Below, piece by piece: positions 22,601 through 56,221 of a stretch of DNA of 64,000 bases (positions are counted from its first letter, which is position 1; each line of letters opens with the position of its first letter). The position numbers were made by a program, and so were the translations under genes. The notes below the pieces were generated by a model. That model saw nothing but the letters and a program-made list of their open reading frames with translations, was not told where the DNA came from and did no database searches. Source of the stretch: Candidatus Omnitrophota bacterium (GTDB lineage: Bacteria > Omnitrophota > Gorgyraeia > B26-G9); contig JAHITY010000118.1 of NCBI GenBank assembly GCA_018817165.1, forward strand, positions 6,526 through 70,525, in the 5' to 3' direction.

Positions 22601-22759
22601 ACATAAAGGCGCAAGTTCGTAAAGTTGAAAGTTCATAAAGTAAAAGCAGTTACAAATTAAAGGTTTTGAGTTTTTTAGAAATTAGTGCAATTAGAAATTT
22701 GTTTTCTGTCTTCTGTTTTCAGTTATCCTAATCGCTATCCGCTGTTTCAATCTGTCTGG

Positions 22760-22788
22760 TTGCAATATATGGGGCTTAATGATATAAT
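22760..22788 (+). promoter_or_regulatory. Putative promoter for pgk: TTGCAA, a 17-nt spacer, and an extended -10 TGaTATAAT
   Basis: TTGCAA at 22760-22765 and TATAAT at 22783-22788, preceded by TG. Confidence 0.45.
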
Positions 22789-22825
22789 AATTTGTTAAAT
22801 ATTGAACATAAGGGGAGGATACATA

Positions 22826-24010: not shown

Positions 24011-24019
24011 GGTATTAAA

Positions 24020-24478: not shown

Positions 24479-24501
24479 GTAGTAAACGGATTAAAGGCCT
24501 A

Positions 24502-24610
24502 TAATAATAATGATTCCGAAAGTGTCTGCTAGGCCGCAGCCATTTCGGACTAAATTCGCGCAGGTTGACTTGACGTCGTGAAGAACACTCCGTAAGTCAT
24601 GCGCTCATTT
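24502..24610 (+). repeat. Family A structured repeat, copy 3, in the tpiA 5' leader
   Basis: Shares ~105 nt with copies at 6472-6674, 42917-43023 and 47034-47134. It ends gcgctcattt directly before the AAGGAG RBS. Confidence 0.8.
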
Positions 24611-24622
24611 AAGGAGAATATA

Positions 24623-25387
24623 ATGCGTAAACCGATTATCGCTGGTAACTGGAAGATGAATAAAACAATAACTGAATCTTTGGATCTTGTCCGCCAACTT
24701 AGCATAGAATTGAAAGATGTTAAAGATGTCGATATACTGGTTTGTCCAGTATTTACAGCGCTGCATAGTGTTAGCCAGGCGGTTGACGGGTCTAATATAA
24801 AAATGGGAGCGCAGAATCTATTTTGGGAGGAAAAAGGGGCTTTTACCGGAGAAGTATCAGCTTTGATGTTAAAAGATACGCATTGCGAATATGTTATTCT
24901 TGGTCATTCGGAAAGACGAAGTATTTTTAAAGAAACTAATGAACATGTAAATAAAAAAATAAAAGCCGCGTTAAAAGCGGACTTATTACCTATTCTTTGT
25001 GTCGGAGAAAGACTTCAGGAACGCGAAGATGATAAGACTTATGATGTTATTACTGAACAAATCAAAGGTTCCTTAGCAGATATTAGCGCGGATGAACTGA
25101 AGAATATTATTATTGCCTATGAACCTGTTTGGGCAATTGGTACTGGAAAAGTTGCCAGTCCTGAACAAGCACAAGCCGTACATGCTTTTATCAGAAAACT
25201 TATATCTGATAATTTTGGTCAGGATACTGCCGAGAGTTTGCGGATTCAATACGGCGGGAGTGTAAAACCAGATAATATTAAAGTGTTGATTAATCAGCCT
25301 GACATTGATGGCGCTTTAGTTGGTGGAGCAAGTTTAAAAGCAGAAGATTTTATCCAATTAGTCTTAGCTTGTTCAATCCAGGATTAG
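24623..25387 (+). CDS. tpiA: Triosephosphate isomerase
   Basis: MRKPIIAGNWKMN start, and the catalytic motifs ILGHSERR and AYEPVWAIGTG. Confidence 0.9.
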   Translation: MRKPIIAGNWKMNKTITESLDLVRQLSIELKDVKDVDILVCPVFTALHSVSQAVDGSNIKMGAQNLFWEEKGAFTGEVSALMLKDTHCEYVILGHSERRSIFKETNEHVNKKIKAALKADLLPILCVGERLQEREDDKTYDVITEQIKGSLADISADELKNIIIAYEPVWAIGTGKVASPEQAQAVHAFIRKLISDNFGQDTAESLRIQYGGSVKPDNIKVLINQPDIDGALVGGASLKAEDFIQLVLACSIQD

Positions 25388-25465
25388 CCAGATTAAACGG
25401 GATAAAGCCTAGCGATTAATTAAAATTGATTGTTAAATGTAATTGCTCAGCCATAATTTGAATCA

Positions 25466-27142: not shown

Positions 27143-27159
27143 ACAGAGAACAGATAGAG

Positions 27160-27290
27160 CGGAAAGGGTAGTCGGTGACGAAGCCCGTATCGGTAACGGT
27201 CACGGTTAAAAATAATGAATTTTAAGCCGAAAGACGTTGCCCTAAAACGAAACGGGTATCGTAACCTTAACCATAACCTTTTAAAAATGA
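27160..27290 (+). repeat. Family B structured repeat, copy 3, between the ATPase gene and pilT
   Basis: gacgaagcccgtatcggtaa ... cgaaacgggtatcgtaacc cores shared with 7727-7880, 10165-10328 and 58990-59112. Confidence 0.75.
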
Positions 27291-27303
27291 AGGGGGTGAA
27301 AAC

Positions 27304-28368
27304 ATGGTAGATATTGGAGAACTATTACAGCTATGTGTTAAGCATAATGCTTCGGATTTGCATTTAACTGTAGGTAAACCGCCAACGCTGCGCATTGACG
27401 GATCATTGATGTCTTTAAATTATGAACCGCTGGGGCATGAAGAAACTGAGGGATTGATGAAGTCACTGACCAGTAATGATAATCAGCGGCGGATTCAGGA
27501 AGTGGGGGGAGTTGATTTTGGTTTTGCGTTTGAAAAAATAGCCAGATTCCGTGTGTCTGTTTATAAACAAAAAGGACATTATGGTTTGACTTTGCGTCTA
27601 ATTCCCACTCATTTGCTTAGCTTTCAAGAAATTGGAGTTAGCGATGTGGTCAAGCAGTTGCTTTATCGTCCTCGGGGCTTAATTTTAGTTACCGGACCTA
27701 CAGGGTCTGGAAAAACCACAACTTTAGCAACAATGACGGATTTTATAAATACTGAGCGCGATGCGCATATTATTACAATAGAAGATCCAATAGAATATTA
27801 TCATACGCATAAAAAAGGGATTATTACGCAAAGAGAATTAGGCGTAGATGTGCCTAGTTTTAGTGAAGCCTTGATAAAAGGCTTGCGTCAAAATCCTGAT
27901 GTAATCCTAGTTGGTGAAATGCGGGACTTAGCAACTATTGAAGCGGCAATTTTAGCTGCGGAGACAGGCCATTTGGTTTTGGCGACTTTACATACAACCA
28001 GCGCGGCAAGAACTGTAGACAGAATCATTGATGTTTTTCCTCCTAATCAACAAGAACAGATAAGGACACAGTTATCTACTTCAATATTAGCGGTAATTTC
28101 GCAGCAATTAATTCCTAAAGCTTCTGGCCGAGGTCGAATCGCGGCTTTTGAGCTGATGATTAATACATCTTCGATTCAAAATCTTATTAGAGAAAAGAAA
28201 ACATATAGAATTACTTCTGATTTGCAGACTGGGGCAAAATATGGTATGAAGACATTTGATTCTTCTTTATATGAATTATATTCAAATGGCACAATTCGCT
28301 CAGAAGATGCGATTGATAAGGCATTTGACCAAGATGCTATGCGAGCAAAAGTCGAAGGCAAACTATAA
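27304..28368 (+). CDS. pilT: PilT twitching-motility (retraction) ATPase
   Basis: Lacks an N-terminal domain. [31 protein letters not shown] and the [11 protein letters not shown]-type motif are present. Confidence 0.85.
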
Positions 28369-28408
28369 GAAAATTGTTTGTAAATCCAGGTTTATTTAGG
28401 AATCAACT

Positions 28409-30112
28409 ATGAGCAATCTATTTAAATTTAAAACAATCGGCACTATTTTACAAGAACGCGGGTTGATAAGTAAAGTAGATCTGAAAGAAGGCCTTGAAAG
28501 CCAAAAGACAAGCGGTTTGCCTTTGGGTAAAATTCTTGTAAACATGGGGATTATTACCGAGGGTCAACTGCTTAATGCTTTAGGTATTCAGGCTCGGCTG
28601 GAAACAGTTGAACTGGAACAGTTTTCAGTTCCGACAGACGTTTTGGAAAAAATTCCTGGGTCAATTGCTCGTTTGTATAATATCCTCCCGCTTAATTTTG
28701 AAACCGGAACGCTTACAATAGCGACATCTGATCCATTTAATTTTAGTATAATTGATGATTTGCGGTTTATGTTTAATTGTAATATTAAAGCTAAAATAGC
28801 AACCAGAGTGAGTATTGCTGAGGCAATTAAAAAATATTATGGCTCAGACATCGAACGTGTTGATGAGATTTTTTCTGAGATCAGTAATAATATTCCAGAA
28901 CTTATTGAAGAAGCTTCTCGCGCGGATAATATAGAAGAACTTTCGGCGCAGTTACCAATTGTTAAGTTGATAAATTTAATTCTTATTCAGGCGATTAAAA
29001 AGAAGGCTTCCGATATCCATTTTGAACCTTTTCAGGATGAATTTAAAATACGTTATCGTCTGGACGGAGTACTTTATGATGTTGTTTCACCTCCGAAAAT
29101 TCTGCACATAGCGATAAGTTCAAGGATTAAGGTTATGGCGAACTTGAACATAGCGGAAACAAGATTACCACAAGATGGGCGTACGCTTGTGCGGATTGCC
29201 GGAAGAATGGTTGATATGCGTGTATCAACTTTACCAACAATTTTCGGAGAAAGTGTTGTAATTAGAATATTAGATAAAGCAACAGTGCAATTATCATTGG
29301 ATGATTTAGGTTTTAAGGAAGATATAAAAAATAAAATACTTTCCTTAATTAAAAAACCGTATGGGATAATATTGAGCACTGGGCCGACTGGATGCGGTAA
29401 GACAACAACTCAATATTCGGCATTAAGCCAGATAAATACAATTGAACAAAAAATAATTACGGTTGAAGATCCGGTGGAATTTGATTTGCCGGGTTTAATC
29501 CAGGTTTCAGTACGACCAAAAATTAATTTTACATTTCCGATTGCCTTGAGGCATATCCTTAGACAAGATCCGGATATAATTATGGTCGGAGAAATTCGGG
29601 ATACAGAAACTGTGCAAATGGCAATTCATGCTTCTTTGACCGGACATCTTGTTTTTTCTACATTGCATACTAATGATGCTCCCAGTGCGGTGACAAGGCT
29701 GATTGATATGGGGGTGGAACCTTTTTTAATTGCTTCGGCTGTTGAGGCAGTTTTGGCTCAAAGGCTTGTTCGCTGTATTTGTTTGAATTGTAAACAAGAA
29801 TATGTGCCGACAAAAAAAGAGTTTGCGGAGTCAGTGATTGACCCGGCAGAAGTTGATAATCAGAAGTTTTACAAAGGTTCTGGATGCGGGCAGTGTAATA
29901 ATTCCGGGTATCGGGGGCGAGTGGGTATTTTTGAATTAATGGTTTTAGATGAGGATTTGCGCTCACTTGTTCTTGATCGAGTAACTGTTAGTCAATTGCG
30001 CAAACAAGCAATTAAAAATGGGATGAGGACATTAAGAGAGGATGCAGTATTAAAAGTATTTCAAGGGATAACAACTTTAGAGGAACTAATTAATATAAGT
30101 TCTAATTATTAA
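28409..30112 (+). CDS. pilB: PilB/GspE-family assembly ATPase (third copy) with a tandem MshEN-like N-terminal motif
   Basis: GPTGCGKTTT, CLNCK...CGQCNNSGYRGR. The N-terminus has TIGTILQERGLISKVDLKEGLESQ and PLGKILVNMGIITEGQLLNALGIQ, resembling the 24-aa MshEN motif. Confidence 0.85.
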   Translation: MSNLFKFKTIGTILQERGLISKVDLKEGLESQKTSGLPLGKILVNMGIITEGQLLNALGIQARLETVELEQFSVPTDVLEKIPGSIARLYNILPLNFETGTLTIATSDPFNFSIIDDLRFMFNCNIKAKIATRVSIAEAIKKYYGSDIERVDEIFSEISNNIPELIEEASRADNIEELSAQLPIVKLINLILIQAIKKKASDIHFEPFQDEFKIRYRLDGVLYDVVSPPKILHIAISSRIKVMANLNIAETRLPQDGRTLVRIAGRMVDMRVSTLPTIFGESVVIRILDKATVQLSLDDLGFKEDIKNKILSLIKKPYGIILSTGPTGCGKTTTQYSALSQINTIEQKIITVEDPVEFDLPGLIQVSVRPKINFTFPIALRHILRQDPDIIMVGEIRDTETVQMAIHASLTGHLVFSTLHTNDAPSAVTRLIDMGVEPFLIASAVEAVLAQRLVRCICLNCKQEYVPTKKEFAESVIDPAEVDNQKFYKGSGCGQCNNSGYRGRVGIFELMVLDEDLRSLVLDRVTVSQLRKQAIKNGMRTLREDAVLKVFQGITTLEELINISSNY

Positions 30113-30143
30113 TAATCCAATTTATAACCAAAAATAGAAAACA

Positions 30144-31394
30144 GTGAAAATGGAAAAATTTAATTATGTAGCTGTAAAAAAAGATGGTTCGGATATTAAG
30201 GGGATTGTCGAAGCAGTAAATTTAAATGATGCTTTGACTAAAATTAAGGCAATGGGATATTATCCCTCTCAAGTTTTGCCTGATAAGAAAAATAATAAAA
30301 AAGACTCGATTAGTAATTCATTTTTTGCGCGATTAAATTTTCTTAATTTATCTGGTCATAAAATTAAAGAGATGGATCTGGTGATTTTTACTAGACAGCT
30401 TTCAGTTTTACTTGATGCGGGCTTATCTTTAGTTCGTGCTTTGCACGCTTTGCAAAAACAATCCCGGTTTAAATCGATGAATGAAATTATTTCCGATATT
30501 GTTGATATGATTGAATCAGGCAGGGCATTTAGTGATGCTTTGGCGCATTATCCCGTGACTTTTTCCAAAGTTTATATAAATATAGTTAAAGCTGGAGAGA
30601 CCGGGGGAGCGATGGATCAGGTGCTGCGACGTTTGGCTGATTTTTTAGAAAGAAATTTAAAATTACGGCAAAGAATTAATGCTGCCTTGATTTATCCTAG
30701 TCTTGTTCTTGCTGTATCGGTTTCGATTTTAATTCTTGTAATTGTTTTTGTTATTCCTAAATTTATGGAAATGTTTCAGGGTACGGGTATAGCCTTACCT
30801 TTTTTAACTTTAAGCATTATGTCTTTAAGTGATTTTATGTTAACTAAATGGTATGTGTTTATAGCGGGGATAGTTGGATTAATAGCCGGCTATAAAATGT
30901 TGTTGAGTAATTTTACGTTTCGTAAGTTTATTGATAATTTTAAATTAAACATTCCAGTTTTAGGGGGATTGACTAAAAAGGTTATTGCTGCGCGCTTTTC
31001 CCGCACTCTTTCAACTTTATTGTCAGGCGGAGTTCCCATATTGCGCGCTTTAGAATTAACCAAGGAAGTTATTGATAATGAGGTAGTGGCAACTGCGATT
31101 GCTGATGTCTCCGATCATGTTAGGGAGGGTGGCTTTATTTCTAAAGTGCTGGAACATAATTCGGCATTCCCTCAGTTGATGGTTAATATGATTTCTGTTG
31201 GTGAAGAAAGCGGTGCCTTGGATAAGATGCTGTCTAAAGTTGCTGATACTTATGAAGAAGAGGTTGATGTTACGGCTAATACCTTAACATCACTTTTGGA
31301 ACCTTTTCTGGTTATTATCATGGGCGGAGTTGTTTTGCTAATAGTTTTAGCGATGTTTTTACCTTTAATGACGCTTATTCAGTCACTAACTTAA
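30144..31394 (+). CDS. pilC: PilC/GspF platform protein (second copy)
   Basis: 416 aa with two T2SSF repeats and TM segments. Confidence 0.85.
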   Translation: MKMEKFNYVAVKKDGSDIKGIVEAVNLNDALTKIKAMGYYPSQVLPDKKNNKKDSISNSFFARLNFLNLSGHKIKEMDLVIFTRQLSVLLDAGLSLVRALHALQKQSRFKSMNEIISDIVDMIESGRAFSDALAHYPVTFSKVYINIVKAGETGGAMDQVLRRLADFLERNLKLRQRINAALIYPSLVLAVSVSILILVIVFVIPKFMEMFQGTGIALPFLTLSIMSLSDFMLTKWYVFIAGIVGLIAGYKMLLSNFTFRKFIDNFKLNIPVLGGLTKKVIAARFSRTLSTLLSGGVPILRALELTKEVIDNEVVATAIADVSDHVREGGFISKVLEHNSAFPQLMVNMISVGEESGALDKMLSKVADTYEEEVDVTANTLTSLLEPFLVIIMGGVVLLIVLAMFLPLMTLIQSLT

Positions 31395-31466
31395 TGATAT
31401 AAAATAAGTTATGTTGCATGTTTAATTTTTGTATTTTTTGTTAAAATTAAATTCAGCAGGTATAAG

Positions 31467-31495
31467 TTGACAAACCTTTATAAATGTGCTATATA
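31467..31495 (+). promoter_or_regulatory. Putative promoter for the pilMNOPQ sub-operon: TTGACA, a 17-nt spacer, and an extended -10 TGcTATATA
   Basis: TTGACA at 31467-31472 and TATATA at 31490-31495, preceded by TG. Confidence 0.45.
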
Positions 31496-31665
31496 TTATG
31501 TAATATATAAGAGTTAGAACTTCTGTATAAGCGAGTGTAAATGCAAGCGTCTTCCATTTTAAAAAGCCTTTTCAAAGGGATGAATAGGTATCTATGGGTA
31601 TTGAAACTATCTTAGTGTCTTACCTGGTTAAATTTAAAAAGGATAAATAATATTTAGGTTGTTTT

Positions 31666-33264
31666 ATGTCTATTGATAAAAATATATTTTTAGGTATTGA
31701 TATTGGTTCAAGCTCCTTGAAAATTGCTCTTTTGAGCAAGGATAAGGGGGGCAGAATTAAATTGCTTAAAGCTGTTTGTCATGAATATACTAGCTACCCT
31801 GTAACTTCCGATAATCACAATCAAACTGAATTACTCGCCTATTTTTTGAAGAAATTTCTGATCAAAGAGAATATTAATCGGGATACTCGGATAGGTATAT
31901 CTATTGCCGGCCAAGCGGCTTTTGTTAGATTAGTTAAAGTCCCAATTACTGCGCCGGAAAAGTTACGTCAGATCGTGCTTTATGAGACGCAGCAACAGGT
32001 TCCATTTCCGATTAATGAAGTTGTTTGGGATTTTCAGATATATGGTAGGGATAAAAAACAGTTAAGTGTTCTTTTAGCAGCTGTAAAAAAGGAACTTACT
32101 GGTTCCATTTTAAGCATTATCAGTGAGTTTTCCTTAAATGTGGAATTTATTGATGTAAGCAATCTTGCTTTGTATAATTGTTTGCATTATTTTTATCGGG
32201 ATCTTAAAGAAACTTTGGTTCTAGATATTGGGGCTAAGACTACAAATATTATCATTATAAGTGAGGAGAAATTTTGGACAAGAAGTTTACCCCTTGGCGG
32301 TCAAGATATTACTGATTCAATCGCGGTTGCGCTTAAAGTCGATAATGGTGTGGCTGAGAAAATTAAAAGAGAGCAGGGTAAAGTTGCAATGCTTTATTAT
32401 GGACAAAAGCTTTCTTCTGATACTCAGGAACAAAAAATTGCGGAGGCAATTACCGCGATACTTACCGATATGACCAATGAAATTGTTAAGACTTTGAATT
32501 TTTATAAGTCTCAGCATAAATCTGAGATGAATTTTAAAAAAGTATTATTAACTGGGGGTGTGAGCAAAGTTGATAATATCGATAAGTTTTTTGAGAATAG
32601 TCTATCTTTACCTGTGGAAAAGTTGGATTATTTTAATTTTCTGGGTTTTAGCCAAAAAGTTGACATGTCAATCAATGAGTTCTTTGGTCCGGCAATCGGG
32701 TTAGCTTTACGTGGTCATGGCCGCTCAATGCTCAATATTAATTTATTATCCCAAGAATACTTGAAAAAGAAAAATTTCAGTAAAAAAATTCCGTTTATTT
32801 TAAGCGCTTTTGTTTTTTTGGGATTGATATTACTTGGTTTTTTTATGCTGTTATTGAGTAAGAATGCTGAATTATCTGATTATTTTAAGAAAATAAATAA
32901 TCAGGTTAATCAATATGAACAATCAGCGAAACAATTAGATGCTTTGAAGCAAGATATTAATGAAATCCAAAAAAATCAAAAGTCAATGAATGCGATTATA
33001 AATGCACGGTATCAAGCAATAGAAATACTGAGTAAAATCACGCAAGCTATGCCTGGAGCAGTCTGGATTAAGAATTTAGATTTAAATTTAGAACTTAAAA
33101 CTATTGTTCTCGAGGGGAATTGCGGTAAGGATTTGAATGCGGTAGATCATTTTCAAAATAAAATCAAATCGCAAGATATTTTTAAAGATGTAAAACTGAA
33201 TACTGTTGGCAAACAAGCTGATGGAAGTATAGACTTTTCAATGACAATATTTATAAACAAATAG
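31666..33264 (+). CDS. pilM: PilM-PilN fusion: actin-like PilM, then a TM segment and the coiled-coil and periplasmic PilN part
   Basis: FLGIDIGSSSLKIAL N-terminus with an ATPase-like fold. A TM segment IPFILSAFVFLGLILLGFFMLLL lies near aa 375, followed by a coiled coil. Confidence 0.65.
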   Translation: MSIDKNIFLGIDIGSSSLKIALLSKDKGGRIKLLKAVCHEYTSYPVTSDNHNQTELLAYFLKKFLIKENINRDTRIGISIAGQAAFVRLVKVPITAPEKLRQIVLYETQQQVPFPINEVVWDFQIYGRDKKQLSVLLAAVKKELTGSILSIISEFSLNVEFIDVSNLALYNCLHYFYRDLKETLVLDIGAKTTNIIIISEEKFWTRSLPLGGQDITDSIAVALKVDNGVAEKIKREQGKVAMLYYGQKLSSDTQEQKIAEAITAILTDMTNEIVKTLNFYKSQHKSEMNFKKVLLTGGVSKVDNIDKFFENSLSLPVEKLDYFNFLGFSQKVDMSINEFFGPAIGLALRGHGRSMLNINLLSQEYLKKKNFSKKIPFILSAFVFLGLILLGFFMLLLSKNAELSDYFKKINNQVNQYEQSAKQLDALKQDINEIQKNQKSMNAIINARYQAIEILSKITQAMPGAVWIKNLDLNLELKTIVLEGNCGKDLNAVDHFQNKIKSQDIFKDVKLNTVGKQADGSIDFSMTIFINK

Positions 33265-33275
33265 AGATTTATATA

Positions 33276-34007
33276 ATGGAAATATTTTTAATCAAAAATT
33301 TCAGAAAAACATTTACAAGTATTGTTCTTATCGCAATCACTTGTGCTGGTTTGATATTAGCGATTATAGCAGCTGGTTTATTCAATTCTAATTTAAACCC
33401 AAAATTAGGGGATTTAGAAAAAAGGCTTATAATTTACAAAAAAACTTTAGGTAATAATCCGGAGCAATTGATCGCAGGTAAAAAAATATATAAAAGTCAA
33501 TTATTAGAAAAGAATGAAAAAATCAATAATATGTTTACAAAGCCGAATTATGTTAGTAGTACTCCGCTTTCTTTCAAACAGCTTTTGTTTAGCGCTCAGG
33601 ATAGATTGAAAGTAGAAGCGCATAAAAAAAATTTAAAATTGTCTGAATGGTTAGGATTTGATGAATATAAAATAAATGTTCCGGAGGCTGCTATTACTGA
33701 TGTTTTAACCCAGGAATTAAACGTAATTGAGGCGCTAGTTACTGGCGCAATAGATAGCGGTGTGAGCTCAATTGATAATATTAAATTATCTCATCAGAGA
33801 CTGTCCGTGACGGTAGCGGATAAGAAGTTTAGCTATTTGCCGATATCTTTATCAATTAAATCAGGTTCGGGACAAATGAAAGCTTTTTTAATGAATATTT
33901 CAAAAATGCCTGGTATTTTTGAAATAATCCAATTAAAAGTCAAGAGTGTTGATCAGGATAAGAATATGTTATCTACGGATATAATTCTACAATTTATTGA
34001 GATATGA
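33276..34007 (+). CDS. pilO: PilO-like bitopic protein
   Basis: N-terminal TM helix, coiled coil and periplasmic domain, in the position between pilN and pilP/Q. Confidence 0.4.
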   Translation: MEIFLIKNFRKTFTSIVLIAITCAGLILAIIAAGLFNSNLNPKLGDLEKRLIIYKKTLGNNPEQLIAGKKIYKSQLLEKNEKINNMFTKPNYVSSTPLSFKQLLFSAQDRLKVEAHKKNLKLSEWLGFDEYKINVPEAAITDVLTQELNVIEALVTGAIDSGVSSIDNIKLSHQRLSVTVADKKFSYLPISLSIKSGSGQMKAFLMNISKMPGIFEIIQLKVKSVDQDKNMLSTDIILQFIEI

Positions 34008-34707
34008 AAATATGAATAAAATATATGATAAGTTAGATAAAATAATTTGTTTTATTATGGCAGGATTATTTATTGTCAGCAGTTATTTATTTATAGGTAA
34101 TAGTTATAATTATAAAATATCTATGGAGCAGAAGAAAAATGCTTTAATTGTTGAAAATAAAAATGAGAATAATGATTTATTGCCAGAAGGTTTACTTTTA
34201 GACCCTGATCCTAAAGCAGCGATTGATTTGCTTGCAATAAAAAGAAATATTTTTGTTCCGTTTGAAGATGATGAGAAAAGGGTAACGTTTGATAATCCTG
34301 TCCTGGAATTATTGGATATATCATATAAACCGCTTGGTTTTCAATATCAAGGAAGAATTATTTATCCAAATGGCAAGATCGTAGCTCAAATTAATGCGAA
34401 TAATAAAAGTTATTTAGTTCAGCTGGGTGCAAAAGTGGGAGATTATAAAGTTACTCACCTGGATAAAAATTCAGTTGTCCTAAAAATGAAAAAAGGAGAA
34501 TCTTTGGATATAAAATATCTGCAACAAGGCTATAGTGATGAATTGATGGCAAAAATTAAAGACAATATTTCTGGAAAGATTGAAACAGTTTATAAAAATA
34601 GTGATATATTCGGCTATAAGGTGCTTGACATAGACAGAGATTTTGTGATATTGTCTAAGTTAGGTCAGCAGTTACGGTTACAGAAAGGAATGGTGCAAAC
34701 GAAATGA
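33997..34707 (+). CDS. pilP: PilP-like protein, membrane-anchored and beta-rich
   Basis: Lies immediately upstream of the secretin gene with a 4-nt overlap. N-terminal anchor and a beta-rich C-terminus. Confidence 0.3.
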   Translation: MRYENMNKIYDKLDKIICFIMAGLFIVSSYLFIGNSYNYKISMEQKKNALIVENKNENNDLLPEGLLLDPDPKAAIDLLAIKRNIFVPFEDDEKRVTFDNPVLELLDISYKPLGFQYQGRIIYPNGKIVAQINANNKSYLVQLGAKVGDYKVTHLDKNSVVLKMKKGESLDIKYLQQGYSDELMAKIKDNISGKIETVYKNSDIFGYKVLDIDRDFVILSKLGQQLRLQKGMVQTK

Positions 34708-36602
34708 AACGATTAATCTTCTTTTTACTTATAATATCTTTTTGCTTAAATATGGATTTAAATGTTTTTGCTCAGGATAGTGGCTTGTCTGATTTTGAAC
34801 AGGATCGGGCATTGGATTTAGCCAATCAAATTGCTCAGCAGAAAAATTCAAAGGCTACTGTAAATACAGCGAATTTAAGCCTTGGTTTGACAGATTTAAT
34901 TAACAAGGGATATGATGCTTGGGCAAATCTGGAATTTGAAAAAGCAAAAGCATATTTTAATGCAGCTTTGAGCTTGGAACCGAATAATTCGGAAATATCT
35001 GAAATTATTTATGGTTTAGAAAAAGCGCAATTAGAATATGAGCGAAGTCAGGTTAAAACAGAATTATCGCTTTTGCAGGGCAAAAGAATGCTTGATTCAG
35101 AAAAAGCTTGGTTGATTGAGCCTCCGAAGACAACAAGTTCCACTGGGCAAATAAAAAAACAATCAATTTCTTCTTTAAAAGAAAAGGCAATGACGAAAAA
35201 TGTAAGCATTGATTTTACTAATGCGCAGATTAGCAATGTGCTTGAATTTTTATCTGAGGTAAGCGGAATCAATATAATTATGGATCAGGCCGCAGTTGCT
35301 AGTGCCGGTAATATCGGCATACATCTTAAAAATGTAAGCTTGGTTCAGGCCTTAGAATCAATATTGCGTTCAAAAGGATTGGCTTATAGGTTTGAAAAGG
35401 ATTTTATTTGGGTTAGTTCCCAAGCGGATATTGCTAATGAGAGTTTAGTTATTCGGATATATAATCTTTCTCAGGGCTTAGCTAGTTTTACTTATTTTAC
35501 GACTTTTGATACTGTTACCATAAAAGGTGTGCGCCCCGATAGTAAAGTGATTTTAGGAGAAGAAGGTTTGGGTGTTGAGACTAATGAAGGAATAAAAATC
35601 GGCGGTCCAAGCGGAGTATCGGGTAAGGTTACTATGACAATTGAGGATGTTTTGAAACAAGTTGTTGATTGGCCTGAGGCAAGTAGGATATTTTTAGATA
35701 ATCGGACAAGTACGCTTATTGTGCGAAATACTCCGACTAATTTAGCAATTTTAGAGGAAGTTATACAAGCCCTTGATGTTAATCCTCCTCAGGTTATGAT
35801 TGAAGCAAGATTTGTCGAAATCGGGGAAGATGATTTATACTCTTTGGGTCTTAAAATGAATACTGAGATTAGTGGGCAGGGAGCAGCAGCTCCAACATCA
35901 TTTCCGTTTAATAAAAATAATAATGGAAAATTCGCTTCGACGTTTCCTGCACCAGCTACTACTGACTTTAACTACGGTAAACTAGATTTTTCCCAGTTTC
36001 AGGCAGTTATTTCGGCCATAGAACAGAATACTAATAGCAATACACTTTCTTCCCCGAAAATCACTACGATTAGCGGGCAGGAAGCAGTAATAAAAATAGT
36101 AAAAGAATATAGATATCCTACAAAATATGAAATCGAAGTACTAAAAGTAGAAGATGCTGATGGTAATACAGTTACGCAATCATTTCCTGTTCCAGTTGAA
36201 TTTACAACTCGCGATATTGGGATAATTTTAAAGGTTACGCCAAATGTCGGAGCTGATGAGAAAACAATTAATATGACTGTTATTCCCGAGGTCAGTGAAT
36301 TTGATGTAACTAAAGATTTTTTTAATTATGGAACTGATGAAAGACCGTTTTTGCAGCCTTTCTTTAATACGCGAAATGCAACAGCCAGTATAATTGTAAA
36401 TAATAATGAAACAGTGGTAATGGGCGGTCTTATGCGGGAAACTGTAGAACAAGGAGTTGACCGTATTCCGGTTCTGGGCAGTATTCCTTTGCTTGGCAAT
36501 TTATTCAGCCGCAAGGTAGATAATAAGCAGAAAAGAAATTTGTTGATTTTTGTTACTGCTCGAATAATCAGTCCAACAGGACAGACAGTAGTTAAAAAGT
36601 AG
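34704..36602 (+). CDS. pilQ: PilQ/GspD-family outer-membrane secretin
   Basis: Signal peptide, N0/secretin_N-like domains, and the C-terminal secretin signature VVMGGLMRE...IPVLGSIPLLGNLFS...NLLIFVTARII. Confidence 0.85.
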   Translation: MKRLIFFLLIISFCLNMDLNVFAQDSGLSDFEQDRALDLANQIAQQKNSKATVNTANLSLGLTDLINKGYDAWANLEFEKAKAYFNAALSLEPNNSEISEIIYGLEKAQLEYERSQVKTELSLLQGKRMLDSEKAWLIEPPKTTSSTGQIKKQSISSLKEKAMTKNVSIDFTNAQISNVLEFLSEVSGINIIMDQAAVASAGNIGIHLKNVSLVQALESILRSKGLAYRFEKDFIWVSSQADIANESLVIRIYNLSQGLASFTYFTTFDTVTIKGVRPDSKVILGEEGLGVETNEGIKIGGPSGVSGKVTMTIEDVLKQVVDWPEASRIFLDNRTSTLIVRNTPTNLAILEEVIQALDVNPPQVMIEARFVEIGEDDLYSLGLKMNTEISGQGAAAPTSFPFNKNNNGKFASTFPAPATTDFNYGKLDFSQFQAVISAIEQNTNSNTLSSPKITTISGQEAVIKIVKEYRYPTKYEIEVLKVEDADGNTVTQSFPVPVEFTTRDIGIILKVTPNVGADEKTINMTVIPEVSEFDVTKDFFNYGTDERPFLQPFFNTRNATASIIVNNNETVVMGGLMRETVEQGVDRIPVLGSIPLLGNLFSRKVDNKQKRNLLIFVTARIISPTGQTVVKK

Positions 36603-49650: not shown

Positions 49651-52600
49651 ATGCTTATAGGGAAAAAGTTTAAAATTATCAGAAAGACACTGGCATTATT
49701 TTGCCTGTGGGGTTTTCTTGGCCTAAACAATGCACTGGCCTTTAGCTTGCTGGATTATCCTAATCCGGATAATTTTTTGAGTCCGCAGCTGAACATTTCC
49801 ATTCCGCTTTTCATCGATGATTATCAAAAAGTTACAAAAGCTCCGCGTTGGCTTAGACCGGATATCGTGGGTTTATTTGGCGGCACCGGAGGTAATATTG
49901 CCGGCAATGTTTTAAGTTTTAGTGATTTAAATCAGTTTTTAACGGAAAAATTATTTGTCAGTTTTATTATCTCACCGCATGATGATGGCGGTTCTTCGGT
50001 TATTCTGCAGAGAATGTTATCTGAATATCTCGGGTATACGCTTTCTCCCGGTGACACAAACAATATATTCGCCGGGCTGACGAGTTATTTTAAAAAGCGG
50101 GTTCTTAGAACGCGTTTTGAAGAGAAGATCTCAGGAACGCTTTTACGTGATCAGTTAGAGAAAATTATCAGCAATACTGAAGCACTGGCTAAGCCAAGGC
50201 CTTTATTTATAGATGAACAAGAAGAAAAAACAGTGAGCAAGATAACGATCGAAGGTATTGACTATCCTGTGAGTTTTGACGCAAAGAATAACCGGTTTAT
50301 TTTTGATCAGGATAAAGAAGCCGGGATTAATCAGAAGCTAATATTTGGTAAGGAGCAATTTATAATCAAGCAATATGCGGGGAAAACAAAATTGTGTTTT
50401 ATCCCTGATGAGAATGATTCAGAAGCCTTAACTTCTGACTTAAAAACGGATTCCAACTGGGTAGAGTTTAAACAGCAAATCTTGGAACTTGCCCGGAGTT
50501 TTGATCAGGAGTTTATAAACCCGAAAATCAAAACTTTACCGGGAAAGGTTATTGATATCTCTTCTGGAAGCATGGGGAATTTTTTAATTGCCGCTAAGAT
50601 GATTCAAACCGGGGCTTATGATCCTAAAAGAAAAGATAAAATAGATCAGGATAAATATCACCAGGGGATTCAGGAATTGTGTGAAATGCTGGATATTGAT
50701 AATGGCTTTGTCAGCTGTTCGACTTTTGATCCGGCAACTTTGTATGCAAAACTTGCTTCAATTGCTATTGAAAAAGATGATAAAGCTTTATTGCTGGATG
50801 GAAATAATGAACAAGCGCTAAAAGAAAACGGGATTATAATCGATAAAATGGATCGGAGCAATGGGGTATTTGACATTTATTATGCTGGTTTGGAAAATAA
50901 TAAGCGTACCAAGTTTGGTTTAAAAATTCGGGAATATATTGAAGGCTATGTATATAGAAATAAACTCGGACGGGAAGACAGCTATTCAGAAGTGAGTCTG
51001 CCTTTAGATGTTTTAGAACGATATCCGGTTACGCTCAGCCATAATCGGCTTAGTTTGAATCTAAAGATCACGAATCAGAAAATAGTTGGGCTAGAATATG
51101 TAAAAAAAAAGGAAACTGTAAAAATTGATCAAGAGCAATTAGCGGAGTTTGAATCAGACGGACAGATTATTTTTGCTTTGCCGAAAGAGATTAGTTCGGC
51201 TTCAGAGGAATCAATCCGCAGCTTACCACGATTTTATATTGATGCAAAGTCAGGGAGCTTAAATATAGTTCTCGATACTAAGGGAATAGGCGTTGGGTTT
51301 TTAATAAATGGAGTGGAGTTAAAAATAAAAGGCCGCTTGGTTATTGAGCAGACAAATATAACCGAGGGTTTGCATCACAGCGGAATTGTTGATTTTGGTT
51401 TTTTAAATAATGTTAAGCCGCGGGTTAACAAGCATAGCCTTTTAGCAATTGCCAATGCTCCTTTGTTCATGATGGGGCCAGGCAGTCAGTATACAAGTTT
51501 AATGTCGTTGTTGCTTATTCCGGAAGTAGTCGTAGCTTTAAAACAAAGGGTTGCCAGCGGTAAAGAGAGTTTATTTATTTTTAATCCCTTAAGAGACAAT
51601 GAAACAGTGGATAGTCAAAGCGTAAGGGATATTATTAGAGCTGTTGAAAAGGTAACAGATGTGAGATTCGGGGAAATATTTAATTATGCGGTAGTGAGTG
51701 ACAGCGAAGGGTTGCAGGAAGATTTTGCCAAAGCTGAAGATGCTTTTAGGGGAGCATCATCTCCGGATTATATAGCGGCAAAACAATTATATGAAAAGTA
51801 TTCTAAGATGTACGGCTTAATGGATGAGATGAAAAATAAAAAATTATCAAATGCGAGAGAAGCATCGAGTTTTTCCAAGCTGGCAAAATACTCAAGAGGC
51901 CTTATTAGTTTTGATGAAAATGATTTAGACGCGCTGATAGACCAAGGTGTGGAAGTTTATAAAACAAAAGTTATTTTAAGCTCTCGGGAAGTTCGCAAAA
52001 AAGGAAAGGCCGAGAAGGAGGAGTCGATCAGATATGATAATGCGCAGATCGCGAATATTATTGATCAAATACTCTGGAGCCGGGGAGCTTTGTTTAAACA
52101 GGATGAAAAATTAGCCAGGCTCAGGCAGAAGCTTATTGACGAAAATTTTGATAGATATCCCGAGGGACTTTACGAAGCAATCAACCGGATAAGAAAGGAA
52201 GGGCTTTTAGGATCAAAAAGCCCCGCGGCTGCCGCACGCTATATCTTTGAACGCTTACAAAAAGAGGATTTTGCTTTATCTGATCAGCAGAGCAGAGCAT
52301 TATTAGATAAGAAGGTAATCATCACAAATCTCAAGCATACGCTTTGTGAGAAAGACGGAATTACGCCAAAAATAAAAAAAGAGTTAGAGGTGTTTTTAAG
52401 GAACAATGGTAAATTGATCGTTATCAGCGGTTTTGAAGTTCAAGAAATGAAGCAAAGGCTGCTTGATTCTCTGGATAAGAATTTATGGAGTTCAATTATT
52501 TTAGTAGCTAATTATGGAACAGAGGCATGGTACTGGGACCAGCAGCAGTCAAAATTAATGAACTTATTTAATTTTCACAAGGAAGCGGCGCTTAAAGATA

Positions 52601-53280
52601 CTCAAATAGCTAAATGGCAGCAAGTAGTGGATAATACTCTGCGGGAATATGCTTTGGATAGACCGCTTAGAGTTAAAGGCCAAGACGTGGATCAAACTAT
52701 TGCGAAAGTAGAAGATCGGGCAACGATGATTGCTTTGCGCTTGAGATCGCGAGCTTTTTTGAGCAGTTTAAATGCTATTAGCGAGGTAAACAAGCGCTTA
52801 AAAGAACAAGATCTGCCTCAGGTCAAAGCTGATGGGATTTTACGTACTCCGATGCTTGAGCGTTTAAATAATATGTTTGCCAAATATGATCTGCCGATAA
52901 GCGCTGTTTTGGGTGGAACCGGGACGATTAATACAATGGTTGAAAAAGCGGCGAATAAGGGCGATGTGATTCAGCGGGTATTATCGGCGGCAATAGATAA
53001 GGGCCTGCTGTTAAGAGAAAACCTTGAGCAAATCCTGATAATGGGTAAGGGCAATTATGAAATAGCCGAAAGGCTGCATGTGCCTTGGCTGGTGTTCCAG
53101 GTCCCGCGTCAATCCACTGAGCATACGATTGAATTTAAGAAAGGATATGGGGTTGGAGGTGCTGAGATATTTTTAGAAATTCTTAATTCGGTACAGGGGG
53201 CTTTGAATTCCTCAAAAATAGATGGTAAAAGCCGGAAGGATATCCAGGATAATGCGATGTTTATTGATCAGGCTATATAG
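49651..53280 (+). CDS. Large (1209 aa) signal-anchored protein with a highly expanded CofD/YvcK (UPF0052)-like domain and a ~580-aa C-terminal extension of unknown function
   Basis: Hydrophobic N-terminus, then the ordered family motifs GLFGGTGGN, HDDGGSSV...PGDTNN, SGSMGNFL and GPGSQYTSLMSLLLIPE, separated by insertions of ~190 and ~290 aa. Confidence 0.55.
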   Translation: MLIGKKFKIIRKTLALFCLWGFLGLNNALAFSLLDYPNPDNFLSPQLNISIPLFIDDYQKVTKAPRWLRPDIVGLFGGTGGNIAGNVLSFSDLNQFLTEKLFVSFIISPHDDGGSSVILQRMLSEYLGYTLSPGDTNNIFAGLTSYFKKRVLRTRFEEKISGTLLRDQLEKIISNTEALAKPRPLFIDEQEEKTVSKITIEGIDYPVSFDAKNNRFIFDQDKEAGINQKLIFGKEQFIIKQYAGKTKLCFIPDENDSEALTSDLKTDSNWVEFKQQILELARSFDQEFINPKIKTLPGKVIDISSGSMGNFLIAAKMIQTGAYDPKRKDKIDQDKYHQGIQELCEMLDIDNGFVSCSTFDPATLYAKLASIAIEKDDKALLLDGNNEQALKENGIIIDKMDRSNGVFDIYYAGLENNKRTKFGLKIREYIEGYVYRNKLGREDSYSEVSLPLDVLERYPVTLSHNRLSLNLKITNQKIVGLEYVKKKETVKIDQEQLAEFESDGQIIFALPKEISSASEESIRSLPRFYIDAKSGSLNIVLDTKGIGVGFLINGVELKIKGRLVIEQTNITEGLHHSGIVDFGFLNNVKPRVNKHSLLAIANAPLFMMGPGSQYTSLMSLLLIPEVVVALKQRVASGKESLFIFNPLRDNETVDSQSVRDIIRAVEKVTDVRFGEIFNYAVVSDSEGLQEDFAKAEDAFRGASSPDYIAAKQLYEKYSKMYGLMDEMKNKKLSNAREASSFSKLAKYSRGLISFDENDLDALIDQGVEVYKTKVILSSREVRKKGKAEKEESIRYDNAQIANIIDQILWSRGALFKQDEKLARLRQKLIDENFDRYPEGLYEAINRIRKEGLLGSKSPAAAARYIFERLQKEDFALSDQQSRALLDKKVIITNLKHTLCEKDGITPKIKKELEVFLRNNGKLIVISGFEVQEMKQRLLDSLDKNLWSSIILVANYGTEAWYWDQQQSKLMNLFNFHKEAALKDTQIAKWQQVVDNTLREYALDRPLRVKGQDVDQTIAKVEDRATMIALRLRSRAFLSSLNAISEVNKRLKEQDLPQVKADGILRTPMLERLNNMFAKYDLPISAVLGGTGTINTMVEKAANKGDVIQRVLSAAIDKGLLLRENLEQILIMGKGNYEIAERLHVPWLVFQVPRQSTEHTIEFKKGYGVGGAEIFLEILNSVQGALNSSKIDGKSRKDIQDNAMFIDQAI

Positions 53281-53428: not shown

Positions 53429-56221
53429 ATGAAGTTGCAAAAAAACAATCTTAAAAGAAAATTTTTTTATATAATAAATTTACTTATTATCCAGGTATTT
53501 TTATTATATAATTTGGCTTTTGCGGAAAGTTTAAAAGCTGAAAGCAATTTTCTTAGCCCTTCTTTGCAGATCGGTGTTCCTAATTTTCTCACTGTTTTTG
53601 ACAGGTATAATCAGAATAATACTGACAATATAGATAGTTATTCTCTGTTTGAGCAAAAGAAATTACAAGCAGGACTGATTAAAAAAATAATCTCTGAAAT
53701 TGAGAAAAGTGATAAATTTACATCTGCTGATTTAGAAATAGTAAAAAAATTCATAAAAATCGCAGAATCTAATTATGGAGAATCAACCTTTTCCTCTGAG
53801 CCGAATGAATACTATTTTAATCATGTGCTTGAGGTTACTGAAATTCTGCTCAGACCAGATCTAAAGTTGAATCCTTCTATGGATACTGTTTGTGCTGGGC
53901 TATTGCATCGGATGCCTGATACCCGTATTTGGCAGTCATTAATGGCAGCCGGAATAGAAGATGTTTTAATTGATGAGATAGTGAGTCTTAAAAATAAATT
54001 TTTAAATCTTACAGATTTTTCTTATACAAAGATGAATTTAAAAAAAGATAGACATACTCTTAATAATTTTATGAATAATATTATACAGCAATCTGAAGAT
54101 GATTTGGGTCAAGCTGCTCCCAATATTATAAAGCTTGTCTTGGCGGATAAGCTTGCCTCAATAAGATTTGCGTCAGAAGTAGACAGGGATACCCTTGTAA
54201 AAGATATAGCTGATGTTTATGCTCCTTTGGCACATCGGATTGGGGCACAAAAATTAAAGGATAAACTTTATAATGAATCATTTCGCTTGGCGCGCCCTGC
54301 AGAATATAAACAAACTTTAAAACTGGTTGAGGCTTTTCTCGGCAAAGATTATTTTGAATTAGATGCTGATTTGCAGGTGCTGGAAGAAAAATTAAAGAGA
54401 TTTATTAAGGATAACTTTAGAGTTGATTTTACAATCGATGTTATGGTAAGGGTTAAGGGCTTGTATGAAATTTATGAAAAATTCCGCGATAGAGAAAGTT
54501 TAAATGATGTTTTGGGTATAAGAATAATATGTGATTGTTCTGCAGCAGAGCTATATCAATTTTCAGATGTAGTCCAGCAGATTGTAGGTACTTGGGATCC
54601 TAAATTGTATGACCAGAAATTTGAGAATGGACTGCAGAGCGGGATGATATTTGTAGATGTAGGCTCTGTTGATAGCTATGATGGTAATCCTTATGAAGTA
54701 CAAATATTAAACAGACAAAGTCATGAAAAAAGAGAAAGAGAATTCCCGCATTGGTCTTATAAATTAGCACAGCGGACAGGTCAAGTATTTGATACGGAAG
54801 AATATGTTCCGATTGGTGATTTTGATGATGATTTTAAGCGTGTATTTGATGGATTAAAAGATAGCGTATTTCCGATTGCTTTGGGTGCGAATGGGGAGCT
54901 TGAAATAAAGCGTTTGGCTGCTGGGTCTGTGCCTGCTGATTTGGCTGCCGCACGCTTGGTAAACCGTTTAAATGAGGATTATAAAGGGGCTAAGGTTAGT
55001 CAATGGAAAAATGGATTGTTACTTAATACACAAGATGTAGCCATGGATTATCAAATAAAGTCTAAGGATATAGTCGAAATTGTAAGCGCTCAAGGGTACT
55101 TAAAAAATGATATTAATAAAAGAACAAATTTAAGGAAAAGCGTTAAAGGATTCAGAACTCAGTTATTGCTTGCTTTAATGGATTTAGGCGTAAGTCCTGA
55201 TTCTTCAAAGATAACATCTGGAGAAATAAGGCTTAAAGAACAATTTGATTTAAGGGGCATAAAGATTACCAGTAAGGTTGTTGAGGAATTTCTAACTCCA
55301 TTTGCTATAAGTCTGGGTTTAGCAGATGTAAAAGAGCTTTATCTGGCACTGACATATTATAATCAACAAGTGAGTGTTGGCGAAGTCATTGAAGCGGCCA
55401 AAGAATCAGGGATTAAAATCATCAAAGATAATTTTTCTGCAGATGACTTTATGTTAGGACAGATTGCTAAGAAAGGGTCACTGGAAGAATTTTTTGTTAG
55501 GGTTGGAGCAGGAGAGATAACGATAAAAGATATCAAGGCAAAAATAAAAGATTTAAAGAATGGCATTAAAACTGATATTAAAAATGTCCGTTTTGATAAA
55601 GAATATAAATTTAAGCTGACTATTCCCAGGCACACAAAGAGAAGCTCTAAGGAACGGCTTAATCAACAAATGATTACAACAAGAGTAAAAAATATTAATG
55701 AGATCATAAAATCTCTTGGTTTGGAAGTTGTTGGTGGAGAAGTGAAAAGTCCGGTATCAAAAGGCAATGGTTCGATTAAAATCCAGTTTTCTGTGCTGCA
55801 TGATGATATCTTTCAAATAAATGAATTAGTCAAAAAATTTAAAAATTCTCAAAAGGTGAAGATTGATACCATTGGATTTAATGAAACTGTAGGAAGGAAG
55901 TTTGTAGTTGAGTTCTTTAATCAAGGCCAGAAACTTACGAGTTTGATTGAATATCTTGAAAATATAATATCTCAGGAAAGCAACAGCACTCAGACTATAG
56001 AGCTTGATGTTAAGAAACAGCCGCTTGATCAAGTTAAGGATGGGATTATTGAAATAACAACCACACTTCCTTCGGGACTTGATAAAAAAGCGATTACTAC
56101 GATTCTAGAAAGGATAGAAAAAGATAGAATAGCACATCAGGCAACTAGAAATGGACTTGGTCCTCAAGCCCAAAAAAAACATATCCCTGAGCTTATGAGA
56201 ATGCTCCAATTTTCAATATAA
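53429..56221 (+). CDS. Long RelA/SpoT homolog. It has a degenerate (HD to HR) hydrolase domain, a (p)ppGpp synthetase domain, a TGS domain, and an unusual N-terminal signal-anchor plus a ~120-aa leader.
   Basis: LLHRMPDT replaces HD. LVLADKLASIRF and VYAPLAHRIGAQKLKDKLYNESFRL match the hydrolase-domain helices. The synthetase motifs RVKGLYEIYEKF, DVLGIRII and EVQILNRQSHEKREREFPHWSYK are present. A TGS-like segment runs FPIALGANGELEIKRLAAGSVPADLAAARL...GAKV. Confidence 0.8.
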   Translation: MKLQKNNLKRKFFYIINLLIIQVFLLYNLAFAESLKAESNFLSPSLQIGVPNFLTVFDRYNQNNTDNIDSYSLFEQKKLQAGLIKKIISEIEKSDKFTSADLEIVKKFIKIAESNYGESTFSSEPNEYYFNHVLEVTEILLRPDLKLNPSMDTVCAGLLHRMPDTRIWQSLMAAGIEDVLIDEIVSLKNKFLNLTDFSYTKMNLKKDRHTLNNFMNNIIQQSEDDLGQAAPNIIKLVLADKLASIRFASEVDRDTLVKDIADVYAPLAHRIGAQKLKDKLYNESFRLARPAEYKQTLKLVEAFLGKDYFELDADLQVLEEKLKRFIKDNFRVDFTIDVMVRVKGLYEIYEKFRDRESLNDVLGIRIICDCSAAELYQFSDVVQQIVGTWDPKLYDQKFENGLQSGMIFVDVGSVDSYDGNPYEVQILNRQSHEKREREFPHWSYKLAQRTGQVFDTEEYVPIGDFDDDFKRVFDGLKDSVFPIALGANGELEIKRLAAGSVPADLAAARLVNRLNEDYKGAKVSQWKNGLLLNTQDVAMDYQIKSKDIVEIVSAQGYLKNDINKRTNLRKSVKGFRTQLLLALMDLGVSPDSSKITSGEIRLKEQFDLRGIKITSKVVEEFLTPFAISLGLADVKELYLALTYYNQQVSVGEVIEAAKESGIKIIKDNFSADDFMLGQIAKKGSLEEFFVRVGAGEITIKDIKAKIKDLKNGIKTDIKNVRFDKEYKFKLTIPRHTKRSSKERLNQQMITTRVKNINEIIKSLGLEVVGGEVKSPVSKGNGSIKIQFSVLHDDIFQINELVKKFKNSQKVKIDTIGFNETVGRKFVVEFFNQGQKLTSLIEYLENIISQESNSTQTIELDVKKQPLDQVKDGIIEITTTLPSGLDKKAITTILERIEKDRIAHQATRNGLGPQAQKKHIPELMRMLQFSI

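Follow-up and report, generated by a model that had tools for sequence, protein, structure and literature searches.

Within a 64,000-nucleotide stretch of a Candidatus Omnitrophota genome (GenBank assembly GCA_018817165.1, contig JAHITY010000118.1, positions 6,526 to 70,525; hereafter the window), we analyzed a gene at positions 53429-56221 that encodes a homolog of the RelA/SpoT alarmone enzymes (RSH) with a signal peptide-like N-terminus. On balance, we lean toward reading its product as a Sec-exported, accessory and rapidly diversifying derivative of the long RSHs, probably a pyrophosphokinase with an altered acceptor, that belongs to a class of exported proteins marked by a common leader and a common C-terminal tail. 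The RSH-like protein does not look like the housekeeping stringent factor of its lineage. The evidence for this reading includes the conserved signal peptide, the leader and tail shared with unrelated proteins, the variable genomic site and the pattern of kept and lost catalytic residues.

A divergent long RSH with a predicted Sec signal peptide

Two Pfam models matched the RSH-like protein slightly over their cutoffs (HD_4, 37.0 bits; RelA_SpoT, 34.1 bits, cutoff 27), TGS scored under its own (17.6 bits, cutoff 22.2), and the NCBIfam models for the RelA/SpoT subfamily (TIGR00691, 94.9 bits versus a cutoff of 499.2) and for the RelA equivalog (NF008124, 49.5 bits versus 728) gave very low scores. 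The closest solved structures were Rel of B. subtilis, M. tuberculosis and S. equisimilis together with E. coli RelA, at E values from 1e-17 to 1e-10. Taking the low profile scores and these structural matches together, we regard the open reading frame (ORF) as a genuine yet very divergent long RSH. Close relatives numbered 5 among 5.8 billion proteins, with 949-976 aa and 31-37% identity, and the next scores below them were those of canonical Rel at ~85 bits; the gene is carried by 3 GTDB species representatives. The initial annotation had described an RSH homolog with a signal-type N-terminus and an HR in place of the metal-binding HD dyad, and Pfam, the structure matches and the family alignment all bear this description out.

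The N-terminus has the layout of a Sec signal, with five K/R among residues 1-11, an h-region of 16 aa and A-F-A at -3/-1, so that cleavage is predicted at AFA/ES (the slash marks the cut); the stretch that follows, ESLKAES, is net acidic (about -1). The same n-h-c/AxA layout recurred in every full-length ortholog despite 30-38% identity (SFA/Q, SFA/W, VSA/Q, ALA/Q and CFA/R), several of which place a helix-breaking P/G ahead of the AxA site, and ortholog P0003 lacks the leader only through a truncated start call. Two further products of the window, the secretin (VFA/QD) and a peptidase (SFA/EQ), served as positive controls and show the same signal style. A signal peptide-like N-terminus was found in 20 of 65 proteins of the divergent clade versus 0 of 185 canonical RSHs. 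Because the charge bias runs from +5 before to about -1 after the hydrophobic stretch, the leader is predicted to insert with its N-terminus in and its C-terminus out (N-in/C-out), leaving the body outside the cytoplasm. The topology first proposed is supported by the Sec-signal features, the positive-inside bias and the conserved layout, and either a cleaved signal or an uncleaved anchor would put the body outside.

A TGA stop lies 2 codons 5' of the ATG, so an earlier in-frame start is impossible, and since the leader is conserved in every full-length ortholog the start is not mis-called, a concern that had been raised when the gene was first described. Homology to Rel begins at residue 87-101, and the true extension therefore consists of the 32-aa signal and a ~50-aa linker; of the ~120-aa leader originally reported, the signal stands and the length does not.

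A leader box and a C-terminal tail shared by unrelated proteins

Downstream of the predicted cleavage site lies a conserved motif that we call the LSP box, in which L42, S43, P44, F53 and L54 are invariant in the RSH-like family. The gene immediately upstream encodes a CofD/YvcK-like protein with a signal peptide followed, at the same spacing, by the box NFLSPQLNISIPLFI (nt 49771-49815). The two proteins also resemble each other at their C-termini, ...QFSI in the RSH-like protein and ...DQAI (53269-53277) in its neighbor; the terminal I is invariant in the RSH-like family, and CofD-like homologs end in ...GQAI or ...EPAI. The leader DNA of the two genes shows little similarity, and synonymous changes separate their box codons, which rules out a recent leader duplication between them and argues for selection on the box at the protein level. 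The LSP box, the C-terminal tail and the neighbor carrying both are new beyond the initial annotation.

We defined the signature as a Sec signal, 5-25 aa, an L[S/A]Px[LIVMF] box and an [S/A]-I-COOH tail, and searched every ORF of 100 aa or more in the window and in ten related loci. A signal peptide with the box was present in 12 ORFs, 11 of which also had the [SA]I tail, the remaining one being a spurious antisense ORF; an [SA][IVA] tail occurred in only 7 of the 262 other ORFs. Beyond the window, carriers were found in L006, L007, L008, L009, L011 and L013 (numbered loci are related Omnitrophota loci). They include a 419-aa protein in L009 (7461-8720; box ...NEMLAPSLGL..., tail ...LVLSSI), for which a kinase-like guess found no support from Pfam or PDB, and a 346-aa membrane protein in L008 (12582-13622; box ...NDTLSPQVVI..., tail ...IAESI). 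In L013, a leader with SFLSPQITI stands on a 234-aa ORF (6263-6967) and a tail ...INTSI on the adjoining 602-aa ORF (6979-8787) in another frame, which also encodes an alpha/beta-hydrolase body; the signature thus probably marks this hydrolase as well. Two distinct genes, a frameshift within one gene or an assembly error may account for the split between leader and body in L013.

Members of the wider RSH-like clade show variants of the box, namely [NT]LSP, LAP or, right at the cleavage site, ALRP; their tails follow [SA][IVA], often as ...SAA or ...SV. A sister subclade of about 700-780 aa (P0123, P0127, P0131, P0134 and P0140) carries A-L-R-P-[VIT]-[AS]-[YF] at the predicted signal-peptidase site, and most of its tails read C-x-[SAN]-A-A-COOH. 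A reading of the tail as a PDZ ligand of class I ([ST]-x-hydrophobic) was ruled out as a rule: F, Q, P or E often occupies position -2, and the residues that stay constant are I at 0 and, before it, [S/A] at -1. Scanning metagenomes with N[FY]LSP[QS]L[NQV]I gave 152 pattern matches, 0 of which were confirmed by tblastn, the query being too short, and an alignment of the 12 leaders was highly variable and unsuited to scanning. No description of the combined box and tail was found in the library models or the literature searched. Their co-occurrence suggests that box and tail together form a lineage-specific signal by which a class of exported proteins is sorted, processed or recognized.

A variable slot beside rnhB

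The RSH-like gene sits in a housekeeping block with the order rpsP, trmD, rplS, rnhB, variable slot, small membrane protein, 5-formyl-THF cyclo-ligase, rny and ymdB. The slot is empty in L008, holds the 419-aa protein in L009 and the alpha/beta-hydrolase in L013, an RSH-like gene in L001-L005 and L012, and a CofD-like gene followed by an RSH-like gene in the window, L006 and L011. L007 has the CofD-like gene and then a rearranged context with neither RSH-like gene nor small membrane protein. The contents thus range over 0, 1 or 2 genes of at least 4 unrelated kinds and vary among closely related Omnitrophota genomes, and every gene in an intact slot bears the leader-and-tail signature (in L013, split over two ORFs). 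The small membrane protein downstream occupies its place at every related locus checked, including L008 and L009, where there is no RSH-like gene; this rules it out as an immunity protein or dedicated partner.

Rates of divergence were uneven within the block. Between the window and the closest genome, L011, identity was 94% for RNase Y, 94% for YmdB, 88% for the 5-FTHF ligase, 78% for the CofD-like protein and 76% for RNase HII, and only 30% for the RSH-like protein. Across genomes whose RNase Y is about 84-94% identical, the RSH-like proteins share 28-38%, making theirs the fastest-evolving gene of the block. The window protein is nearer to the L001 group (36-38%), though RNase Y there is only 83-85% identical. 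Since it stands at 30% to L011 and at 36-38% to the L001 group, the comparison points to extreme diversification or allelic replacement, which would be unlike a core stringent factor.

Retained donor site, remodeled acceptor pocket and lost regulatory features

The family was aligned with canonical Rel by profile-profile comparison (hhalign), and the match spanned the HD, SYNTH, TGS and helical domains (query 87-644). A helical segment of the type ...DLxAxIGxGxIS... is present as a tandem duplicate, aa 593-644 and 655-715 (window 55205-55573; hhalign hits 1 and 2), and aligns to canonical Rel positions 503-574. Between the helical region and the ACT-like domains, where a zinc-finger domain (ZFD; CCxPxPGD...HRxxC) was looked for, we found no Cys/His motif and no hhalign match. 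An AlphaFold2 model had a mean pLDDT (per-residue confidence) of 78.9, with ~90 across residues 73-470, and showed an N-terminal helix (2-39), a disordered linker (40-70), the HD and SYNTH domains, a TGS beta-grasp (480-553), a helical region (562-712), two beta-alpha-beta-beta-alpha-beta domains (717-880) and terminal helices at low confidence. The TGS domain named in the initial annotation is therefore present as a fold in both profile alignment and model. The "full long-RSH regulatory region" claimed there is present only in part: it held for the TGS fold and the helical part and failed for the TGS histidine and the ZFD.

Active-site residues were surveyed in 6 family members aligned with 65 canonical Rels and are given in B. 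subtilis Rel numbering. In the hydrolase domain the second residue of the HD dyad, D78, is R in all 6 family members and D in all 65 canonical Rels; R44, E81/D82 and N148 are likewise replaced, and only H53, H77 and D144 remain. With its hydrolase site destroyed in this way, the RSH-like protein is predicted to be unable to hydrolyze alarmones, and the dead hydrolase proposed from the HR alone gains further replaced positions.

The synthetase domain has the RxKxxxxxxxK, DxxGxR and ExQ catalytic motifs, and no family member deviates at R241, K243, K251, D264, R269, E324 and Q326 (here R341, K343, K351, D360, R365, E423 and Q425); R241, K243, K251, D264 and E324 are largely kept even over the much more divergent clade. 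The altered positions are S247 (E/N), K304 (S/Q/A), N306 (M/A/G), H312 (G/K/Y) and the arginine of EVQIRT, R328 (L/M), all of them invariant or nearly so in the 65 canonical Rels (K304 as K/R), and Y308 is kept as F/Y. From the Rel structural literature, we take R241, K243 and K251 to bind the ATP phosphates and D264 and E324 to serve Mg binding and catalysis. K304, N306, Y308 and H312 presumably bind GDP/GTP, with the Y308 aromatic stacking on the acceptor base. The donor and catalytic machinery would accordingly be kept and the acceptor pocket remodeled, as far as residues can indicate. The TGS histidine, H in 65 of 65 canonical Rels, is V/I/T in the family (V511 here); we take this residue (B. 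subtilis H420, E. coli RelA H432) to be needed for sensing the CCA end of deacylated tRNA. The RXKD/EXDD position reads K-L-Y-D (K392-D395) and matches neither motif (definitions in PMC6416229). Against PDB, the SYNTH profile matched long Rel/RelA (E about 1e-6) and weakly RelQ/RelP; no affinity with the toxic small alarmone synthetases (toxSAS) was detected, and no toxSAS or exported alarmone synthetase (EAS) structure was among these matches. The label "RelA-like" given to the protein at first is not supported, given the NF008124 score, the lost TGS histidine and the missing ZFD.

A wider clade and giant RSH-bearing proteins

An exhaustive profile search over 1.84 billion representatives returned 30 proteins below 1e-30 and many further matches, with LLH[KRSTGN] for LLHD and E-x-Q-[ILV]-[LM]-[TD] for EVQIRT. 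RSH modules (pseudo-HD and SYNTH, with or without TGS) were found embedded in proteins of 1487-7967 aa, some fused to HAD or ACT, the giant carriers including P0126 (5805 aa), P0147 (7967 aa), P0166 (4619 aa), P0138, P0139, P0144 and others. Named members of this wider clade are Omnitrophota, and two owe their annotation, as phosphoglycerate kinase and phosphoglycerate mutase, to other domains fused to the module.

Genomic context

The coordinates of the RSH-like gene, its parts and the surrounding features are collected in Table 1.

Table 1. Features of the RSH-like gene and of its surroundings, in window positions.
Feature	Position	Strand	Remarks
Whole gene, long-RSH-like protein with signal peptide, 930 aa	53429..56221	+	Identical to P0001, "HD domain-containing protein", from a Candidatus Omnitrophica metagenome-assembled genome
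Predicted Sec-type signal peptide, aa 1-32	53429..53524	+	n-region MKLQKNNLKRK (+5), h-region FFYIINLLIIQVFLLY, c-region NLAFA; from sequence features
LSP box NFLSPSLQIGVPNFL, aa 40-54	53546..53590	+	In low-confidence linker, 8 residues past the AxA site
Pseudo-hydrolase (HD-fold) domain, about aa 87-300	53687..54328	+	
H160-R161 replacing the HD metal dyad	53906..53911	+	R in 6/6 family members, D in 65/65 canonical Rels
SYNTH (nucleotide pyrophosphokinase) domain, about aa 330-450	54416..54778	+	
TGS-fold domain, aa 478-555	54860..55093	+	9-residue insertion
Helical (AH-like) region, aa 560-715	55106..55573	+	
Two ferredoxin-like (ACT/RRM-like) beta-alpha-beta-beta-alpha-beta domains, aa 717-880	55577..56068	+	
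C-terminal helices, then tail ...F-S-I-COOH	56084..56218	+	Helices at low confidence; tail at 56210-56218
Variable slot	Between rnhB (48886-49488) and small membrane protein gene (56264-56668)		Same site in L001-L013
CofD/YvcK-like protein, 1209 aa, upstream neighbor	49651..53280	+	Present only in some genomes (insertion)
Hydrophobic membrane protein, 134 aa	56264..56668	+	Several predicted transmembrane segments; directly downstream
Type II secretion / type IV pilus-like machinery	12975..36602	+	GspE/PilB-type ATPases, two GspF, GspK, PilM/N/O, pseudopilins, secretin 34704-36602

The window has a G+C content of 36.8%, and a scan for promoters and terminators gave nothing over shuffled expectation. 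No other RSH gene was found in it, making the RSH-like gene the sole one there; no relA/spoT entries occur in the supplement of the Omnitrophota complete-genome preprint, and none of the best canonical Rel matches is assigned to Omnitrophota by name. The secretin system of Table 1 lies 17 kb upstream of the RSH-like gene. Its cluster of about 24 kb holds four T2SSE-family ATPases, including a GspE/PilB-type ATPase with a C-terminal PilZ (c-di-GMP-binding) domain at 12975-15164, and has a canonical phosphoglycerate kinase gene (22802-24010) in its midst. At the edge of the window, a 2146-aa ORF (24-6464) gave Kre9/KNH-like Ig-like and reelin-subrepeat-like matches; its product probably belongs with the large surface or repeat proteins that have been reported for Omnitrophota.

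Proposed mechanism and alternative readings

In the mechanism that we propose, the signal peptide would thread the growing polypeptide through SecYEG in the N-in/C-out orientation, as the conserved signal features suggest, and signal peptidase I would probably cut after AFA32. The mature protein would then present a flexible linker with the LSP box at its start and the [S/A]-I tail at its end, which may act as a sorting, processing or recognition signal. The body would consist, in order, of pseudo-hydrolase, SYNTH, TGS, the duplicated helical domain and two ACT-like domains, with no hydrolysis. Because the ATP-binding and catalytic residues are kept, transfer of pyrophosphate from ATP to an acceptor is probably retained, with (p)ppGpp, (p)ppApp or another compound as the product; with neither the tRNA-sensing TGS histidine nor the ZFD left, canonical switching-on by starved ribosomes is unlikely. 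Speculatively, the protein could act in the periplasm, at the surface or, after release through the upstream secretin system, possibly on or in a host or prey.

Several points weigh against an exported synthetase. The export call is a rule-based one, built from classical rules, ortholog conservation and internal controls. The uncharged N-terminal stretch amounts to 21 residues, a membrane-spanning length, so that an uncleaved signal-anchor is possible, with the same predicted topology and a tethered protein. The changes at K304, N306, H312, R328 and S247 could mean loss of activity. The flanking genes are housekeeping genes and several genomes keep the RSH-like gene in synteny, a pattern that could also fit a core function passed down vertically. 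We know of no ATP or GTP availability in the periplasm, and TGS, helical and ACT-like domains are known to us only in cytoplasmic, ribosome-bound roles.

A bolder version of the export reading, which we put forward as tentative and doubtful, would make the RSH-like protein one interchangeable cargo of an undescribed polymorphic effector system of Omnitrophota. Nucleotide-using and other enzymes with a common leader and tail, mostly swapped at the rnhB hotspot, would be exported, possibly via the secretin, onto a host or prey. The cargo kinds would comprise RSH-like proteins (at least 2 divergent types), CofD/YvcK-like proteins, an alpha/beta-hydrolase and unknowns, and the RSH cargo would be a delivered synthetase that keeps its ribosome-type domains to work in another cell.

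We consider it unlikely that the protein is an exported pseudoenzyme, in which the RSH scaffold would serve without pyrophosphate transfer as a nucleotide- or RNA-binding or structural module, such as a sensor or an adhesin-like component, in the manner of the giant Omnitrophota proteins. The replaced synthetase residues, the very low Pfam and NCBIfam scores and the lack of an obvious ATP supply outside the cytoplasm all fit such a role, as do the positional homologs in L006 and L011, which are on record with HD_4 only (a rescan of P0129 from L006 gave RelA_SpoT 20.4 bits, below the cutoff of 27). However, the seven invariant synthetase residues at 30-38% identity are hard to explain without selection for catalysis, and the acceptor-stacking aromatic at Y308 is kept as F/Y.

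Somewhat less probable still is a membrane-tethered stringent factor, that is, the lineage's own (p)ppGpp synthetase held by an uncleaved anchor or peripheral helix with its body in the cytoplasm. Its appeal lies in the long-RSH architecture, the setting among translation and RNA-metabolism genes (rplS, rnhB, rny) that is syntenic in several genomes, the 21-residue stretch that could span the membrane and the absence of a further RSH from the 64-kb window. Yet the charge bias indicates N-in/C-out and the AxA site and P/G breakers are conserved, the TGS histidine and ZFD are lost, and the gene is missing from its site in L008 and elsewhere replaced by unrelated leader-bearing genes. Between this factor and an exported enzyme, the two alternatives that the initial annotation had left, the exported enzyme is favored: the slot is empty in L008, the RSH-like gene evolves far faster than its neighbors, and CofD/YvcK-like and other unrelated proteins bear the same leader and tail. 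Finally, an annotation artefact, with the true start past the hydrophobic segment of an ordinary soluble cytoplasmic RelA-like enzyme, is very improbable: an in-frame TTG (L29) just ahead of AFA makes a shorter product formally possible, but the n-h-c character, AxA and LSP box are conserved at the protein level in orthologs and unrelated genes, a start at L29 leaves the conserved box unexplained, and the first Met further on, M151, already lies within the HD fold.

Significance and comparison with known systems

Alarmone synthesis was long held to be strictly cytoplasmic, and small exported synthetases were shown only in 2025. If the export reading is right, exported synthesis would extend to a regulated, multi-domain branch of the RSH family, and it would reach a phylum whose members are ultra-small and probably depend on hosts. 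The RSH-like protein would also provide a compact, 930-aa test case for the Omnitrophota puzzle of "cytoplasmic" enzyme domains behind export signals. Should leader box and tail prove to be a sorting code, the exported enzyme repertoire of these uncultured bacteria could be listed from sequence alone. A literature search for Omnitrophota together with ppGpp returned no paper combining both, and the Nature Microbiology survey of Omnitrophota has no mention of alarmones.

The giant proteins of Omnitrophota are the nearest parallel within the phylum. Among 916 long Omnitrophota proteins, 94% were reported to have a signal peptide or transmembrane helices (bioRxiv 10.64898/2026.06.07.730766), and the giant proteins combine cytoplasmic-type enzyme domains with type II secretion or type IV pilus-like systems nearby (bioRxiv 10.64898/2026.06.07.730766; 10.1101/2023.11.21.568195). 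The main text of neither preprint names ppGpp, the stringent response or the RSH Pfam families. The RSH-like protein shares with them the phylum, "cytoplasmic" enzyme domains behind export signals, related RSH modules and such machinery in the vicinity; unlike them, it is compact and single-module.

Compared with Rel, RelA and SpoT, the RSH-like protein has the N-terminal HD fold, SYNTH and the TGS fold, and it shares a dead hydrolase site with RelA, although in the RSH-like family that site carries an invariant HR. It differs in its signal peptide, in the loss of acceptor residues, TGS histidine and ZFD, in the duplicated AH segment, and in being an accessory gene at a hypervariable locus with very fast evolution. 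It is thus built as a long RSH but fails several of the defining tests of that family. With toxSAS (Tas1/Apk1, FaRel2, CapRel) it has in common an RSH-fold pyrophosphokinase possibly used outside the producer and a polymorphic-type locus. In contrast to it, toxSAS are small, occur in type VI secretion, phage or toxin-antitoxin delivery contexts and have immunity or antitoxin partners, and the RSH-like gene has no cognate immunity neighbor.

The closest functional analogs are the EAS. Bacteria use Sec and further routes to export small alarmone synthetases; two of these, SaEAS and VpEAS/RelV, are active enzymes, show toxicity when retained in the cytoplasm and have no immunity genes, and the survey that described them deliberately did not extend to "large, multidomain RSH proteins" (Ahmad et al., mBio 2025, PMC12691689). 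As in the EAS, the SYNTH domain here stands behind a Sec signal, called by rules in our case, with no hydrolase activity, no adjacent dedicated immunity gene and a predicted site of action outside the producer cytoplasm. The EAS, however, are small single-domain proteins of the small alarmone synthetase type related to Apk1/SaEAS, whereas here the chassis is a 930-aa long RSH that carries the LSP box and C-terminal tail and whose pyrophosphokinase activity is a prediction. Overall, the RSH-like protein would bear a functional likeness to an exported alarmone synthetase while standing outside the described EAS clades.

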